64,000 nt of DNA from Alphaproteobacteria bacterium. GTDB lineage: Bacteria; Pseudomonadota; Alphaproteobacteria; UBA828. The stretch covers positions 512,001 to 576,000 of the forward strand of contig CAXXMU010000001.1 of NCBI GenBank assembly GCA_963667785.2, read 5' to 3'. Under the pieces are notes generated by a model. That model had not been told where the DNA came from. It worked only from the letters and a program-made list of their open reading frames with translations, and ran no database searches. The first letter of the stretch is position 1. Every line of letters begins with the position of its first letter. Both the position numbers and the translations under genes were made by a program. Positions 11,201 through 18,510 of this stretch are shown piece by piece.

Positions 11201-12214
11201 CTACTCCGCCGAGACCTTCACCAGCAACTTGCCGAAGTTGCGCCCGTCGAAAAGGCGCTGAAAGGCGACGGGCGCGTTCTCGAGGCCGTCCACGACGTCC
11301 TCCCGGAAGGCGATCCGTCCGTCCGCCAGCCAGCGGGCGAGCCGCCGGCGCGCGTGCTCGTAGTGGGCGCCGTAGGAGAAGATGTTGAAGCCCTTCACCT
11401 CGGTCTCGGTGAAGAGGATCGGGGCGAGGTGGCTCGCGACCCGGGGCGGCTCGGTCGCGTTGTAGTGGGAGATGCCGCCGCAGATCACCACGCGTGCGCC
11501 GTTGGCGAGCAGGGGATAGATCGCATCGCCAATGGGTCCGCCGACATTCTCGAAGTAGACGTCGATCCCGTCCGGGCAGGCCGCGCCAAGCGCTGCGGGC
11601 AGGTCGCCCTCGTGACGGTCGATGACCGCATCGAAGCCGAGTTCCTGGGTGAGGTAGCGGAGCTTCTCCGCACCGCCGGCGATGCCGACCACGCGGCAGC
11701 CCGCGATCTTCGCCACCTGGCCCGCGACCGCGCCGACCGCACCTGCCGCCGCCGAGATCACCACCGTGTCGCCCGGCGCCGGCCGGCCGACCTTGACCAG
11801 CCCGAGATAGGCGGTGAGCCCCGGCATGCCGAGCACGCCGACCGCCGTCGACAGCGGCCCCAGCGCCGGGTCGACCTTGCGCGCGGCCGCGCCTTGCGCG
11901 ATGGCGTAGTCCTGCCAGCCGGTGTAGTCGTCGACGATGTCGCCGGGCGCGAAGCCCGGGTGCCGGCTCTCCACGACGCGGCTGACGGCGCCGCCCACGA
12001 TCGCCTCGCCGAGCGGGATCGGCGGGTAGTAGCGGAGGTCCGTCCCCATCCTGAGCCGCATGTAGGGGTCGAGCGAGAGCCAGATCGTCCTGACCAGCAG
12101 CTCGCTGTCCGCCGGCGTCGGCACCGGCGCTTCGACGAGGCGGAAGTCAGTCTCCTGCGGTGCGCCCACCGGGCGCCGGGCGAGGACGATCTGGCGGTTG
12201 GTATCGGCTGTCAT
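11201..12214 (-). CDS. NADP-dependent oxidoreductase (CurA/prostaglandin reductase-like MDR)
   Basis: [55 protein letters not shown]. Confidence 0.93.
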
Positions 12215-12351
12215 GGGCGCTGCTCCCCCTCTGCTCGCGGCGGAGTCTATGCGAGCGGCGGCCGGCGGCAAGTCGGGCGGCAAATTCGGCTGTCTTCGGC
12301 GCCGTGCGCCGACTACTCTGGCCCTCCTTGGCAAGAGGGAGGCGACGGCCG

Positions 12352-13047
12352 ATGAACCTCAACCCGACCGAGCGGGAGCGGCTTATCATCTTCCAGGCCG
12401 CCCAGCTCGCGCGCGAGCACCGGCGCCGCGGCATCAGGCTCAGCCACCCGGAGGCGCTCGCCTACATCTGCGACGAGCTCCTCATGGGCGCCCGCGAGGG
12501 CCGTGCGCTCAAGGACCTCATGGGCTACGGGGCGGAGATTCTCGACGCCGACGACGTGATGGCCGGCGTGCCCGAGCTCATGCCGGTGATCCATGTCGAG
12601 GCGATGTTCCCGGACGGCGCCAAGCTCATCACCGTCCATCAGCCGATCCGGCCCGGCAAGGAGCAGCGCTCGCCCGGCTTCCGCGCCGGCGAGATCATCA
12701 CGCCGGACGAGGAGATCGAGCTGAACGCCGGCCGCAGGACCGCGTCCGTCACCGTCACCAACACAGGCGACCGCCCGGTGCAGATCGGCAGCCACTTCCA
12801 CTTCTTCGAGATCAACCGGGCGCTCGAGTTCGATCGCGCGGCGACCTTCGGCATGCGCCTCGACATCCCGTCGGGCACGGCCGTCCGCTTCGAGCCGGGG
12901 CAGGAGAAGGAGGTGGCGCTGGTGGAGATCGGCGGCCGCGGCCGGGTCAGCGGCTTCAACAACCTCACCGAGGGCATGATCGATTCGCCCGCCGTGAAGG
13001 AGCAGGCGATCGGCCGCGCCAGGGCGCGCGGCTTCCGGGGAGCGTAG
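12352..13047 (+). CDS. ureAB: Urease gamma-beta fusion subunit
   Basis: Gamma part [11 protein letters not shown]...[17 protein letters not shown] fused to beta part [17 protein letters not shown]...VRFEPG. Confidence 0.93.
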
Positions 13048-13051
13048 GCAG

Positions 13052-14761
13052 ATGGTGAAGATCCCGCGCGAGACCTATGCCCGCTACTACGGGCCGACCA
13101 AGGGCGACAGGATCAGGCTCGGCGACACCGCGCTGATCGGCGAGATCGAGCACGACCACACGTCATACGGCGACGAGTGCTGGACCGGCGCCGGCCGCGT
13201 GATGCGCGACGGCATGTCCTACGACGCCCATACGTCCGCGGCCGACGGCGCCATCGACATGCTGGTCGAGAATGCGACCGTCATCGACCCGGTGCTGGGG
13301 CTGGTGAAGGCCGATATCGGCATCAAGGACGGCAAGATCGCCGGCGTCGGCAAGGCCGGCAATCCCAACACCCAGGAGGGCGTGGACCCTGCTCTCGTCT
13401 GCGGCCCCAACACCACCTACTACCCGGCCGGCGGCCTGATCGTGACCCCCGGCGGCATCGACGTGCACGTGCACTGGATGTCGGCGGAGCAGTGCAACCA
13501 CGCGCTGGCGAGCGGGCTCACCACCATGATCGGCGGCACCATGGGGCCGCTCTTCGCCATCGATTGCGGCGGGCCCTGGAACACCTACCGGATGATCGAG
13601 GCCTCGGAGGCGTGGCCGCTCAATTTCGGCTTCTTCGGGCGCGGCTCGTCGCACGATCCGGCGACCGTCGCCGAGCACCTCGACGGCGCCATCATCGGCG
13701 TCAAGATCCACGAGGACTACGGCGCCATGCCCGCCACCATCGACGCCTGCCTGCAGGCGTCCGCCGAGCACGACTTCCCGGTGCAGATCCACACCGACAC
13801 GCTGAACGAATCCGGCTTCTACGAGGACACGATGGCGGCGATCGCCGGCCGCCCCATCCATATGTACCACACCGAAGGCTCCGGCGGCGGCCATGCGCCC
13901 GACATCATCCGCTGCAACGGCGAGCCCCACTGCCTGCCGTCGTCGACCAACCCGACCAACCCCTACACGGTCAACGTCTTCGACGAGCAGCTCGACATGA
14001 CCATGGCCTGCCACCTGCTGCGCTACGACCTGCCGGAGGACGTGGCGTTCGCCGAGAGCCGGGTGCGCCACGGCACCATCGCGGCCGAAGACGTGCTGCA
14101 CGACATCGGCGCGGTCTCGATGTTCGGCTCCGACAGCCAGGGCATGGGGCGGATCAACGAGGTCATCACCCGCTGCTGGCAGCTCGCGAGCAAGATGCGC
14201 GACCAGCGCGGCCGGCTGCCCGAGGAGACCACGGCCGACGCCGACAACGAGCGCATCAAGCGCTACATCGCGAAATACACCATCAACCCCGCCATCGCCT
14301 TCGGCATCGATCGCTACGTGGGCTCGCTGGAGCCGGGCAAGATGGCCGATCTCGTGACCTGGAAGCCCGCCTTCTTCGGCATCAAGCCCTTCGGCGTCAT
14401 CAAGGGCGGCTTCGTCGCCTGGGGCGCGAGCGGCGACCCCTCGGGCAGCTATTTCCAGACCGAGCCGGTCATCATGCGGCCCCAGTTCGGCCATCACGGC
14501 CGCGCGCCGCAGAGCTTGAGCGCCACCTTCGCCCACCAGCGCGCGCTCGATATCGACGTGCCCGGCCGCCTCGGCATCGCCAAGCCGATCCTGCCGATCG
14601 GGAGCTTCACCAGGCTCACCAAGAAGGACATGCTGCACAACGACGCCTGCCCCGATATCCGCGTCGATTCCCAGACCTTCGAGGTCTTCGTCGACGGCAC
14701 GCTCGCGGCCTGCGAGCCGATCGAGACGATCACCCTCGGCCAGAACTACCTGCTGCGCTGA
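13052..14761 (+). CDS. ureC: Urease alpha subunit (divergent, urease-like amidohydrolase)
   Basis: [70 protein letters not shown]. Confidence 0.92.
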
Positions 14762-14785
14762 GCCCGCCCCTTGGCTGCCGCCGCC

Positions 14786-15628
14786 ATGCCGCTCGCGCGG
14801 CCCAACGACGGGCCGCAGGCCGCGCTCCGCTTCGCCCGCGCGCCCGACGGGCAGAGCTACATCGCCCGCCAGCGCGTGGGCTACCCGTTCCACATCACCC
14901 GGCCATTCTATCTCGACGACGAGCCTGCCGGGGCGCTGACGCTCTACCTCCAGTCCGTCTCCGGCGGCATCTATCAGGGCGAAGACCTCCGCATGATCTG
15001 CACGGCGGATGCCGGCAGCAGCGCCCACGTGACCACCCAGGCGGCGACCATCGTCCACCGCATGCCCGCCGCGCCGGCACGGCAGACGGTCGCGCTGGAG
15101 GCCGCGGACGGCGCGCTGCTCGAGTATCTGCCGGACCCGCTGATCCTGTTCCCCGGCGCCCGGCTCTCCTCGGTGCTGGAGATCGATGCCGCGCCGGGCG
15201 CCACGGTCATCGCGTCGGAGAGCTTCGCCCACCACGACCCCGGCGGCGAGGAGCGGCGCTTCGACCGCTTCGAGGCGGAGATGCGCCTGAACGACGGGAA
15301 CGGCCGGCTGCTCGCGCTGGAGCGCTATGCCACGTCGGGCGAGCGGCTCGCGCCGGGCGCGGGCCAGGTCGCGCGCTGGCCTGCGCAGGGCAGCTTCGTC
15401 GTCGCCCATCGCGGCCTTTCGCGGGAGGCGATCCTGACCGCGCTACGCGACGCGCTTCCGCCCTCGGACGCGCTCTATGCCGGCGCCTCGGCGCTCCCCA
15501 ACGAAGCGGGTATCGGCGTGCGCCTGCTCGCCCGCGACGGGGCCGCGCTCAGGCGCGGGCTGGAGGCGGCCTGGCGCGCGGTCCGGCTCGTGCTCCACGG
15601 CGCCCCGCCGGCGCCGCGCCGTAAGTGA
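14786..15628 (+). CDS. ureD: Urease accessory protein UreD
   Basis: YPFHITRPF, SGGIYQGE, VTTQAATIVH, LEYLPDPLILF; directly follows ureC. Confidence 0.9.
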   Translation: MPLARPNDGPQAALRFARAPDGQSYIARQRVGYPFHITRPFYLDDEPAGALTLYLQSVSGGIYQGEDLRMICTADAGSSAHVTTQAATIVHRMPAAPARQTVALEAADGALLEYLPDPLILFPGARLSSVLEIDAAPGATVIASESFAHHDPGGEERRFDRFEAEMRLNDGNGRLLALERYATSGERLAPGAGQVARWPAQGSFVVAHRGLSREAILTALRDALPPSDALYAGASALPNEAGIGVRLLARDGAALRRGLEAAWRAVRLVLHGAPPAPRRK

Positions 15629-15641
15629 GCCATTCCCGCCG

Positions 15642-16025
15642 TTAGAGCACGCTGGCGATGTCGGTCCGCGCGAAGTCCTTCCCGACATAGAGCAGGGGGC
15701 AACCGCGCGCTCTCGCGACGTCGTACGCGAAGCAGTCTCCGAAGTTCAGCCCGGCCGGATCGACGCCCTTGCCCCATCGCGCATAGATTTGCGCGACCCG
15801 CCGCGCCACGGCCAGGGTTACCGTCTCCACGTCGAGGCCGAGGCCGTTGACGAGTCTGGCCATCTCGGTGCCGAGGCTCCGCCTCTCGGCGACGACGAGC
15901 GCTTCGGCGACCGTCGCGGCGGAAATGGCGATTCGGTCGCTGCCGGCCAGCGCCTCCGCGCAGGCCGCCGTCTGCTCTTCGTCCAGCAGGACCGCAATCA
16001 GGGCCGAGGTGTCGACCGCGATCAC
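15642..16025 (-). CDS. vapC: Type II TA toxin, VapC/PIN family
   Basis: VDTSALIAV, AGLNFGDCFAY, LLYVGKDFARTDI. Confidence 0.93.
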   Translation of the reverse strand: MIAVDTSALIAVLLDEEQTAACAEALAGSDRIAISAATVAEALVVAERRSLGTEMARLVNGLGLDVETVTLAVARRVAQIYARWGKGVDPAGLNFGDCFAYDVARARGCPLLYVGKDFARTDIASVL

Positions 16026-16279
16026 CTGGGCAGACCATCGTCGTCATAGAGAAAGTCCTGGCTGCGAGCCGCGCCGGGGCCGGCGCGCCGCTTATCTGCG
16101 GCGGCCGCCTGCACGGCAGCAATCAGCGCCCGCCGGGCTGCGGCATCGGGCCGGGGCTGCACCGGCTCCAGCCTGACGGTCTCCTTGCCGTGGCGGGTGA
16201 GCACCACCTCGTCGCCGGCTTCAGCCCGGCGGACGAGCTCGGTCAGTTGCCCCTTCGCGTCGCTCACGGAGATTCGCAT
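16022..16279 (-). CDS. Type II TA antitoxin, Phd/YefM family
   Basis: ISVSDAKGQLTELVRRAEAGDEVVLTRHGK; overlaps the toxin start by 4 bp. Confidence 0.92.
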   Translation of the reverse strand: MRISVSDAKGQLTELVRRAEAGDEVVLTRHGKETVRLEPVQPRPDAAARRALIAAVQAAAADKRRAGPGAARSQDFLYDDDGLPR

Positions 16280-16424
16280 CGGCCTGTATTCCTAGAGGCG
16301 TGACGGTGCTCCCTGAATATGGACCAATGAATAGTCTAAATCAAGGCCCGCGGCTGAGGCGCCGTCCGGCACACAATGTGGTGAGGCCCTTGATCGCTGC
16401 GCGCGGCCTGCCAAGGTTGGTGCC

Positions 16425-17129
16425 ATGCACGTGCTGCTCGTCGAAGACGATGGCGAGACCGCCCGCTACCTCGAGAAGGGCCTGAGCGAGAGCGGCCACG
16501 TGGTCGAGCTCGCCCGCGACGGGGCGGACGGGCTCGCTCTCGCGCTCGACAACAGGTTCGACGCGCTCGTGGTCGACCGCATGCTTCCCGGCCTCGACGG
16601 GCTCTCGCTGATCGAGACGCTGCGCCGCAAGGGCAGGCGCACGCCGGTGCTGATCCTCAGCGCGCTCGCCCAGGTGGACGACCGGGTGGAGGGGCTGAGG
16701 GCGGGCGGCGACGACTACCTGACCAAGCCCTTCGCCTTCTCCGAGCTGCTGGCGCGGCTCGAGGCGCTGATCCGCCGCGCGGACGGCGCAGGCGGCGAGA
16801 CCCGCCTCCGCCTCGCGGACCTGGAGATCAACCTGCTCACCCGCGAGGTGACGCGGGCGGGCCGCGAGATCGCCCTGCAGCCGCGCGAGTTCGCCCTGCT
16901 CGCCTACCTCGTGCGCCATGCGGGGCAGGTGGTGACGCGCACGATGCTGCTGGAGCGGGTCTGGGGCTATCACTTCGATCCGCAGACCAACGTGATCGAC
17001 GTCCATGTGAGCCGGCTGCGCGGCAAGATCGACAAGGGCTTCCGCGCGCCGCTGATCCAGACCGTGCGCGGCGTCGGCTACTGCCTGCGTGCGCCCGCGC
17101 GCGAGGACGCGGGACGTGCCGACGACTAG
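16425..17129 (+). CDS. OmpR-family response regulator
   Basis: LLVEDD, DRMLPGLDG, GGDDYLTKPF, winged helix TNVIDVHVSRLRGK, TVRGVGY. Confidence 0.95.
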   Translation: MHVLLVEDDGETARYLEKGLSESGHVVELARDGADGLALALDNRFDALVVDRMLPGLDGLSLIETLRRKGRRTPVLILSALAQVDDRVEGLRAGGDDYLTKPFAFSELLARLEALIRRADGAGGETRLRLADLEINLLTREVTRAGREIALQPREFALLAYLVRHAGQVVTRTMLLERVWGYHFDPQTNVIDVHVSRLRGKIDKGFRAPLIQTVRGVGYCLRAPAREDAGRADD

Positions 17130-18510
17130 GACGACAAGGCTCCTCCGGACCTCGACGTTCCGGCTCTCGCTCCTCTACGTCTGCCTCTTCGGCGCTTCCG
17201 TCCTGGTGCTGCTCGCGTTCATCTACTGGACCACGGTGCGGGTCATCGACGAGCAGACCGAGGCCACCATCGAGGCCGAGGTGCGCGGCCTCGCCGAGCA
17301 GTACCGGGCGCGGGGCATCCGCCAGCTCGTCGCCGTCATCGAGGAGCGGAGCGGTCCCTTCGGCGATTCGGACAGCATCTATCTCCTGGCCGACCCCGGG
17401 TTCCGGCCGCTCGCCGGCAACCTCAGCGCTTGGCCGCGCGAGGCAATCGGGACGGAGGACGGCTGGGTGGAGATCTCCGCCCGGCGCGCGAGCGGGGAGG
17501 AGGCGCGCGGCACGCTCCGCGCCCATACCTTCGTCCTGCCAGGCGACTTCCGCCTCCTTGTCGGCCGCGATCCCCGCGGCCGGGCCGACTTCGAGGACCT
17601 GATCCTCGAATCCCTCGGCGGCGCGCTCGGCATCACGCTGGTCCTCGGCCTGCTCGGCGGCCTCGTCATGAGCCGCCGGATGCTGCGCCGGGTCGACGCG
17701 GTGCGCGAGACCGGCCAGCGCATCGTGCGGGGCGATCTCTCGCGGCGCATGCCGGTCACCGGCGTCGGCGACGAGTTCGACCGCCTCTCGATCACGGTCA
17801 ACGAGATGCTCGACGAGATCGAGACCCTGATGACCGGATTGCGCACGGTGACCGATAGTGTCGCGCACGACCTGCGCAGCCCGCTCACCAGGCTCAAGTC
17901 GCGGCTGGAGCTCGCGCTCCGCGACGGCCCGGGGGAGGGACAGGGCCACCGTGCCGCGCTCGAGCGCGCGATCGCCGAGACCGACGGCATCCTGCGCACC
18001 TTCGCCACGCTGATGGAGATCGCCCGCGCCGAGTCCGGAAAGGCGGGCATCGCCATGGGGCCGCTCGACCTCCGCGCCACCGTCGCCGACGTGGTCGAGC
18101 TCTATGCCCCGCTCGCCGAGGAGAAGGGCCTCGCCATCGAGGCCGCGCTCGACGACGTGGGCGCGGTGACCGGCCACGGCCAGTTCCTCTCCCAGCTCGT
18201 CGCCAATCTGCTCGACAATGCGCTCGGCTACACGGCCGAGGGCCGAATCCGGGTCGGGCTGACGCGCGAGGTTTCCGGCGTCGTCCGCCTCACGGTGGAA
18301 GATTCCGGGCCCGGCATCCCGCCGGCGGAGCGCGAGCGCGTGCTGCAGCGCTTCGTCCGCCTCGATTCGAGCCGCAGCGGTGGCGGCAGCGGCCTCGGGC
18401 TCAGCCTCGTCGCCGGCGTGGCCTCGCTCCACCGCGCCGCCCTCGTGCTCGACGAGAGCCCGCTGGGAGGCCTGCTCGTCTGCGTGAGCTTCCCGCCGCC
18501 GGCCGAATGA
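17116..18510 (+). CDS. HAMP-domain sensor histidine kinase
   Basis: Two TM helices, H-box AHDLRSPL, N-box NLLDNA, DSGPG, GSGLGL; GTG start inferred. Confidence 0.93.
   Translation: MPTTRTTRLLRTSTFRLSLLYVCLFGASVLVLLAFIYWTTVRVIDEQTEATIEAEVRGLAEQYRARGIRQLVAVIEERSGPFGDSDSIYLLADPGFRPLAGNLSAWPREAIGTEDGWVEISARRASGEEARGTLRAHTFVLPGDFRLLVGRDPRGRADFEDLILESLGGALGITLVLGLLGGLVMSRRMLRRVDAVRETGQRIVRGDLSRRMPVTGVGDEFDRLSITVNEMLDEIETLMTGLRTVTDSVAHDLRSPLTRLKSRLELALRDGPGEGQGHRAALERAIAETDGILRTFATLMEIARAESGKAGIAMGPLDLRATVADVVELYAPLAEEKGLAIEAALDDVGAVTGHGQFLSQLVANLLDNALGYTAEGRIRVGLTREVSGVVRLTVEDSGPGIPPAERERVLQRFVRLDSSRSGGGSGLGLSLVAGVASLHRAALVLDESPLGGLLVCVSFPPPAE

Follow-up and report, generated by a model that had tools for sequence, protein, structure and literature searches.

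A probable two-subunit urease isozyme of the ure(AB)C type in an alphaproteobacterial genome with three urease loci

The urease locus and its products

The window, meaning the whole stretch of 64,000 nucleotides (nt) analysed here, comes from the genome of an Alphaproteobacteria bacterium (GCA_963667785.2, contig CAXXMU010000001.1, positions 512,001 to 576,000), and all positions given below without a contig are counted from its first letter. On its forward strand it carries three closely packed and intact open reading frames (ORFs) predicted to encode a urease together with one accessory protein. These are ureAB (12352..13047) for a fused urease gamma/beta subunit of 231 amino acids (aa) with Pfam and NCBIfam matches, ureC (13052..14761) for the 569-aa alpha or catalytic subunit, and ureD (14771..15628, with a start at TTG 14771 or ATG 14786) for a urease accessory protein (Pfam UreD, 136.2 bits). 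The start of ureC lies 4 nt past the stop of ureAB, and ureD is the only accessory gene at the locus, with no ureE, ureF or ureG in its neighbourhood. A whole-assembly Pfam search identified three UreC genes, at loci referred to here as A, B and C, of which B is the window locus. Judging from its sequence, the product of locus B is probably a functional nickel urease isozyme with the two-subunit ure(AB)C architecture, and nothing was found which shows that this enzyme acts on anything but urea.

UreAB lies above the cut-off of the NCBIfam family NF009671, 'bifunctional urease subunit gamma/beta' (336.4 bits, cut-off 243), and possesses the Pfam domains Urease_gamma (residues 1-99, 123.8 bits) and Urease_beta (residues 113-208, 150.6 bits). 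UreC is likewise above the cut-offs of the equivalog TIGR01792 (730.3 bits, cut-off 680) and of NF009686 (785.1 bits, cut-off 354), with Pfam matches to Urease_alpha (149.4 bits) and Amidohydro_1 (214.5 bits). Membership of the Helicobacter-type UreA and UreB families was rejected, as the scores for NF010592 (261.3 bits, cut-off 353) and NF010591 (674.3 bits, cut-off 1083) both fall under the cut-off. An AlphaFold2 model predicts that UreC has the urease fold over its full length (predicted local distance difference test, pLDDT, 85.3; predicted template modelling score 0.91). It superposes on the ureases of Klebsiella aerogenes, Sporosarcina pasteurii, Helicobacter pylori, Yersinia enterocolitica and jack bean with a template modelling score (TM) of 0.94-0.96 and a root-mean-square deviation of 1.8-2.1 Å, while the best non-urease chain gives a TM of at most 0.47. 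Several loops of the model have a pLDDT of 58-72, including residues 161-170, 271-280 and 361-370.

Phylogeny of UreC

For phylogenetic analysis, UreC sequences were taken from 77 loci found with the window protein in contigs of one genome per species, 66 of them full length, to which nine named plasmid ureases and the genome's own paralogs were added. Removal of twenty near-duplicates (L013, L014, L016, L024, L025, L026, L029, L030, L032, L036, L045, L048, L050, L055, L056, L057, L061, L064, L068 and L075) left 58 rows, from which trees were built with IQ-TREE in quick and careful runs; they contain no Helicobacter row. The window UreC falls in a subclade of 13 rows (support 100/100) that is nested in a clade of 36 rows (100/100), referred to here as the fused clade. 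Thirty-three rows of this clade (33/36) include the upstream region, and in these ureC is preceded by a single fused ureAB; L022 is truncated at the 5′ side, and two tblastn pieces are seen there in L020 and L050. The three-subunit enzymes, among them those of E. coli O157, Priestia megaterium, Hafnia, Thaumarchaeota and Thiobacillus, make up another group (97/94). Rows standing for characterised ureases (E. coli O157, Klebsiella-like; Bacillus-like; Yersinia-like) are found outside the clade of the window UreC, which therefore does not nest among them.

A preliminary description of this DNA, made from the sequence, had proposed a divergent clade with a subunit fusion unlike the usual alphaproteobacterial form. 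The fusion and the distinctness of the clade, apart from the characterised ureases in the tree, are both confirmed; the cluster type, however, is already known, and from an alphaproteobacterium. Bradyrhizobium BTAi1 has three urease clusters, and in 2008 two of them, as well as a cluster of Pseudomonas syringae B728a, were reported to have the form ureEF(AB)CGD (PMC2492869). For Streptomyces, PMC5489568 includes ure(AB)C among the urease genes. In about 20 loci of the fused clade the order ureF-ure(AB)-ureC-ureG-ureD was found, many of these also having ureE. Automatic annotation of three plasmids places such clusters beside genes for the handling of urea: that of Aminobacter adjoins urtBCDE and ureJ, that of Methylobacterium adjoins urtA and genes of urate/allantoin catabolism, and that of Acinetobacter adjoins urtA. 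These neighbours of sister-subclade clusters point to urea as the substrate.

Active site of UreC

UreC was aligned with HMMER to the jack bean and H. pylori ureases and was also included in an alignment of 78 UreC rows numbered on the E. coli O157 protein, a numbering that agrees with the K. aerogenes residues given in PMC7433671. Both alignments confirm the earlier observation that all ligand motifs of the dinuclear site and the flap Cys-His are present. The nickel ligands, in the protein's own numbering and with the start of each codon in brackets, are His139 (13466), His141 (13472), Lys218 (13703), His247 (13790), His273 (13868) and Asp361 (14132). They occupy six columns (K. aerogenes His134, His136, Lys217, His246, His272 and Asp360) that are invariant in all 78 aligned UreCs, including that of the window. 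The residues of substrate binding and catalysis are His220 (13709), Asp222 (13715), Gly278 (13883), Cys320 (14009), His321 (14012) and Arg337 (14060). Five of these, corresponding to K. aerogenes His219, Asp221, Gly277, His320 and Arg336, are again invariant (78/78), and Cys320 is the equivalent of the flap Cys319.

PMC7433671 describes the K. aerogenes pocket as consisting of Ala167, His219, Glu220, Asp221, Gly277, Cys319, His320, Arg336, Ala363 and Met364. Urea is bound there through His219, which is His222 in S. pasteurii, and through three backbone carbonyls, those of Ala167/170, Ala363/366 and Gly277/280, and the flap is locked by an Asp-His-Arg triad. In the window UreC eight of the ten pocket residues are identical, one is changed from Ala to Gly (position 363; Gly364 in the protein's own numbering, codon start 14141) and one lies within the re-cut Ala167 loop. 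The Ala363Gly change, seen as SDSQGMGR where others have SDSQAMGR, concerns a residue whose contact to urea is a backbone carbonyl. Gly363 is present in 58 of the 78 aligned UreCs, and SDSQGMGR in 110 of the best 120 matches from a search of 5.8 billion proteins. The Ala167 loop (around 13553 on the forward strand, in the GGGTGP-type segment) is four residues shorter, as had been noticed before, and this shortening is common to the whole fused clade, the locus A paralog and a Klebsiella pneumoniae plasmid enzyme. The Haloarcula urease also has the short loop, yet keeps Ala363. The placement of the gap in the short loop is arbitrary and sequence alone cannot assign the residue that supplies the 'Ala167' carbonyl; in the model, the loops of the Ala167 and Ala363 equivalents have a pLDDT of 62-64. 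The backbone contacts of positions 167 and 363 to urea may persist.

Three further segments that had been listed as unusual do differ in the alignments, namely WTGAGR in place of FGGGK, HVHWMSAEQ in place of HIHWICPQQ or HFISPQQ, and MACHLL in place of MVCHHL. The Trp after HxH in the second of these is also found in E. coli O157 UreC. A change was counted as specific to the subclade when its column is near-invariant in 19 canonical rows and 24 rows of the sister 'C-type' and is fixed differently in the 20 rows of the subclade. Only nine positions qualify: G47A, K49R, N198S, Q208H, W222Y, A236S, H321L, K382R and I453V. Of these, only W222Y (own Tyr223, codon start 13718), adjoining the Asp of the flap lock, and H321L (own Leu322, codon start 14015), adjoining the catalytic His, lie close to the site. 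The Hafnia (Yersinia-type) row has Asn at position 321, and the flap turn reads Arg-Tyr at 323-324 in the window subclade. K. aerogenes variants H312A and H321A are said to have stayed active; a literature search found no published K. aerogenes evidence that substitutions of His321 or His312 are tolerated. Between the window subclade and the sister C-type, 45 columns are fixed differently. In the 5.8-billion-protein search, the motifs CW[TV]GAGR and M[AS]CHLLRY were found in 17-18 of the best 120 matches, all of them members of a set of 19 clusters with at least 75% identity, and the motif HEDY is commoner (30 of the best 120).

The preliminary description had concluded from these differences that the substrate pocket was rebuilt. 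This is not supported, because Ala363Gly and the short loop occur clade-wide, including in the clusters linked to urt genes. The pocket appears to be retouched and not rebuilt, with the changes relevant to urea binding common to urt-linked clusters.

Three urease loci and a scattered set of maturation genes

The existence of a second, canonical urease in the genome had been raised as a point to check. Locus A is a three-subunit ureABCEFGD cluster on the minus strand of contig C1 (L007; 220738-226090, with 223452-225371 also given). Its UreC (P0126) has the motifs GGGNAPD, TCHNL, SDSQGVGR and FIQGRAR and is 79-99% identical in 70 of the 79 loci found, where UreE and UreF are only about 40-60% identical. 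These loci span Alpha- and Betaproteobacteria, Mycobacterium, Thermoleophilia and Dehalococcoidales, and the cluster is apparently unusually conserved and spread horizontally. Locus C, on the minus strand of contig C5 (69578-74029; L006:6579-10961), consists of ureF, a fused ureAB, ureC (P0125) and a gene for a 407-aa amidohydrolase, the best NCBIfam matches of which are PRK05985/cytosine-deaminase-like and all under cut-off. There is no ureD or ureG at this locus.

A gene for a UreG-type GTPase with a CPH motif is found by itself on the minus strand of contig C6 (555561-556148; L098:7553-8410; TIGR00101 240.8 bits, cut-off 204.2). It adjoins no urease gene, its neighbours including those for an RPE65-family oxygenase and a D-Ala-D-Ala carboxypeptidase. 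The product of this orphan ureG shares 65-77% identity with UreGs from fused clusters and 48-54% with those from the canonical-type clusters L067, L072 and L074, while the UreG of locus A shows the reverse pattern. Genome-wide, UreE is thus confined to locus A, where UreD and UreF also occur; the only other UreD is at locus B and the only other UreF at locus C.

The same arrangement is present in close relatives. At loci of 84-96% identity, ure(AB)-ureC-ureD occurs in 10 of 10 and ureE, ureF or ureG in none, whereas relatives at 79-82% have ureF-ure(AB)-ureC-ureD-ureG, with ureF and ureG each in eight of nine loci and lacking only where a contig is cut; in L023, one of these relatives, NCBIfam scores an upstream ORF as UreE. 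The complete cluster ureE-ureF-ure(AB)-ureC-ureG-ureD is not present at the window locus. Three strong UreC matches were found in each of five relatives' genomes (5/5). All four close complete genomes show this layout too, with three UreC genes, a UreD at each of A and B, a UreF at each of A and C, and one orphan UreG. The simplest reading is that the lineage kept one fused-type set of UreD, UreF and UreG, spread over three places, which matures both fused-type enzymes. This shared and scattered maturation set is a useful by-product of the analysis.

The genome also codes for four UrtA-like binding proteins (205-310 bits), whose genes all lie away from the urease loci.

Selection and expression

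The three genes of the window locus are under purifying selection. Against eight close relatives (84-96% identity), the ratio of nonsynonymous to synonymous substitution rates (dN/dS) is 0.08-0.19 for ureC, 0.16-0.36 for ureAB and 0.22-0.36 for ureD. UreC is 93-96% identical across the loci of nine relatives, most of which have conserved synteny. In four RNA libraries from three studies, ureAB and ureC are covered by contigs about 90-98% alike, a weak hint of transcription, DNA carry-over being possible; little or no cover of ureD and the intergenic stretch in some runs shows nothing either way. DNA sequencing runs contained 0.19-0.40 of the sampled sequence words, and no habitat is claimed from them.

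Genes and features flanking the locus

Upstream of ureAB, and transcribed divergently from it, lies a curA-like gene for a curcumin-reductase-like NADPH oxidoreductase (minus strand, ATG at 12214). The intergenic region between the two, read from the sequence, is 137 bp in length (12215..12351, forward strand) and has a Shine-Dalgarno-like AGGGAGG at 12336-12342, with the ATG of ureAB 9 nt further on. A consensus scan of 12000-16500 for sigma-70 promoters and terminators gave no sites of either kind.

Downstream of ureD, a two-component pair is encoded on the forward strand, consisting of an OmpR-type response regulator (16425-17129) and a HAMP histidine kinase (17089-18510). The best NCBIfam matches of both are of the heavy-metal type and under cut-off, these being TIGR01387 for the regulator (CztR/CopR; 251.8 bits, cut-off 279.2) and TIGR01386 for the kinase (CztS/CopS; 158.4 bits, cut-off 292.55). 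The pair is a syntenic neighbour, 3′ of ureD in 8 of 10 loci of the 84-96% relatives, and the curcumin-reductase-like oxidoreductase is likewise common to 8 of these 10; metal-responsive control of the urease operon by the pair is conceivable. Two minus-strand ORFs separate ureD from the regulator in the window, one for a VapC-like protein with a PIN domain (15642-16025; 62.1 bits in Pfam) and one of 85 aa (16022-16279). These look like a toxin-antitoxin insertion, because in the relatives L013, L014 and L016 the regulator follows ureD directly, at about 60 nt or less.

Function of the window urease

The sequences of UreAB and UreC contain every element of the classical active site, with the dinuclear centre on His139, His141, Lys218, His247, His273 and Asp361, the urea oxygen bound by His220, and a flap lock formed by Asp222, His321 and Arg337 together with Cys320. 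UreAB and UreC would assemble as the subunits of other ureases do, Lys218 would be carbamylated, and nickel would be inserted by a GTP-dependent UreD-UreF-UreG complex. The proteins of this complex would come from the window ureD, the ureF of locus C on contig C5 and the orphan fused-type ureG on contig C6, one set thus serving two enzymes, and the genome would have three differentiated urease isozymes, the window enzyme among them.

A number of observations weigh against this reading. The changes in UreC include the flap turn adjoining the catalytic His, and Ala363Gly loses a C-beta which, according to PMC7433671, is in van der Waals contact with the water on the Ni(2) side. No fused-type ureE was found in the genome, the sole UreE being at locus A. 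None of the genome's proteins reaches the UrtA cut-off (TIGR03407, best 310.5 bits, cut-off 492.75), and no urea-transporter gene was found in the flanks of the window locus, of L021, L023 and L025 (three of the nine loci at 79-82%) or of the sister-clade loci L037 and L063. The path from the root of the fused clade is 0.59 substitutions/site for the window subclade and 0.27 for the locus C paralog, so that the rate of evolution in the subclade is roughly double that of its sister. That three paralogs have been kept over a long time suggests that they differ somewhat in function and implies some division of labour. Finally, a literature search found no biochemically characterised urease of the fused type outside Helicobacter, but genomic descriptions only, and for this reason urea as the substrate rests on homology and on the annotated neighbours of sister-subclade clusters.

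Several of these points favour a neofunctionalised paralog, in which urease chemistry is kept and a slightly larger and differently gated pocket (Gly363, the short Ala167 loop, Leu322, the Arg-Tyr flap turn and Tyr223) prefers a small amide or an analogue of urea, for example an N-substituted urea, hydroxyurea or formamide. Such an enzyme would fit the fast lineage, the 45 columns fixed unlike the sister C-type (W222Y and H321L among them), the three paralogs kept in all five relatives' genomes, the want of a urea-transporter gene beside any examined subclade locus and the lack of a characterised clade member in the literature search. It is nevertheless distinctly unlikely, in that the changes which would enlarge the site are clade-wide and present in urt-linked clusters, the hydrogen-bonding and catalytic residues for urea are all retained, the subclade-specific changes are few and conservative, and no adjoining gene suggests a pathway for an alternative substrate. 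No conserved neighbour indicating a substrate was found in the flanks of L021, L023, L025, L037 and L063. In a somewhat wider form, in which the altered flap turn and the Gly363 pocket lead to another preferred substrate (a small amide or substituted urea) or to a very different affinity or pH regime for the subclade marked by CW[TV]GAGR, HEDY and M[AS]CHLLRY, neofunctionalisation is still improbable. If true, it would explain three ureases and one shared, scattered maturation set in an alphaproteobacterial lineage known from metagenome-assembled genomes only, and a new substrate in the subclade would be the first natural specificity change within the urease family proper.

The use of another metal, also proposed in the preliminary description, is not favoured, as a dedicated set of UreD, UreF and UreG is retained. 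A urease adapted to another metal, for example the iron of Helicobacter mustelae UreA2B2, or to different conditions, and employed under nickel scarcity, might account for the loss of ureE, ureF and ureG at the locus (none in the 10 loci at 84-96% identity) and for the syntenic two-component pair with heavy-metal-type best matches. H. mustelae UreA2B2 is said to need no accessory proteins. There is a precedent in PDB 3qga, titled 'Iron Containing Urease UreA2B2', but the window UreC is no nearer to it (596.1 bits) than to the H. pylori urease (610.4 bits). With ureD kept under purifying selection, and a matching fused-type UreF and UreG elsewhere in this genome and in four of four close genomes, such a specialisation is very unlikely. 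Taken jointly, a shifted substrate, shifted kinetics and a shifted metal have a low probability. Least probable, to the point of being scarcely credible, is a decaying or non-catalytic remnant of a duplicated cluster after accessory-gene loss. The accessory genes other than ureD are indeed missing at the locus and a PIN/VapC gene is inserted directly downstream of ureD in this genome; against decay stand the three intact reading frames, the low dN/dS of ureC, the high identity and mostly conserved synteny across nine relatives' loci, the catalytic residues kept in 78 of 78 rows and, as weak evidence, the cover by RNA-library contigs. A pseudogene is ruled out by dN/dS and the intact frames.

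If the window locus simply encodes a urease, its value is modest, lying in a lineage with three phylogenetically distinct ureases and with its fused-type accessory genes split over three loci. It would also warn that a urease cluster which annotation pipelines take to be inactive because it looks 'incomplete' need not be so. The fused ure(AB)C clade itself is widespread (Pseudomonas syringae, Bradyrhizobium, Methylobacterium, Aminobacter, Acinetobacter plasmids) and has apparently never been assayed.

Comparison with known ureases

The closest known systems are the clusters of Bradyrhizobium BTAi1 and P. syringae B728a (PMC2492869) and of Streptomyces, the latter taking the form ure(AB)C or ure(AB)CFGD (PMC5489568). 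These share with the window the fused gamma/beta subunit (NF009671), and the P. syringae proteins P0101 and P0110 belong to the same UreC clade, at 64% identity. These systems likewise have dedicated accessory genes and occur several to a genome, BTAi1 also having three. Unlike these, the window cluster retains only ure(AB)-ureC-ureD, ureF and ureG being encoded elsewhere in the genome, its 79-82% relatives have the order C-D-G instead of C-G-D, and its subclade has changes of its own, including G47A, K49R, W222Y and H321L.

The K. aerogenes/E. coli O157 urease (ureDABCEFG; PDB 2kau) has ligands and catalytic residues identical to those of the window UreC, with 51% identity over the full length and a TM of 0.95-0.96. 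It differs in its separate gamma and beta subunits, Ala363, an Ala167 loop longer by four residues, Trp222 and His321, and it lies in a different half of the tree, in the canonical group (97/94). H. pylori UreA/UreB (PDB 1e9z, 6zja) resembles the window enzyme in its two-subunit architecture, and the catalytic subunits are 50% identical (TM 0.94-0.95); it differs in having SDSQAMGR, MVCHHL and the long loop. Helicobacter mustelae UreA2B2 is, like the window enzyme, a second two-subunit paralog beside another urease in the genome. The two have no special sequence affinity, as seen from the scores given above, and in the window an accessory UreD is encoded at the locus, with F and G elsewhere.

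The separate-subunit lineage nearest to the fused clade is the Haloarcula hispanica urease (plasmid pHH400, ureB-C-A-G-D), with the short Ala167 loop in common. Its subunits are unfused, it keeps Ala363, and its UreC is 52% identical to that of the window. A Haloarcula urease has reportedly been purified; a literature search found no paper on Haloarcula urease biochemistry.

Unusual fused-type loci on plasmids

Two plasmid loci are worth mentioning in their own right. On plasmid NZ_CP108786.1 of Embleya sp. (L096, 3276-5662), a fused ureA is followed by a gene for a UreC of 558 aa that is 41% identical to the window protein and has the longest branch in the tree. These genes lie between a gene with a non-ribosomal peptide synthetase condensation domain and phosphotransferase genes, with no accessory genes annotated nearby. 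This makes the Embleya locus a better candidate than the window locus for an enzyme of urease fold with another role. The conjugative IncFIB plasmid NZ_CP070108.1 of K. pneumoniae (L092, 799-3832) carries a fused ureAB-ureC-ureG beside ABC-transporter ATPase genes, and the flap of its UreC reads MTSHHL, with Ser replacing the flap Cys.

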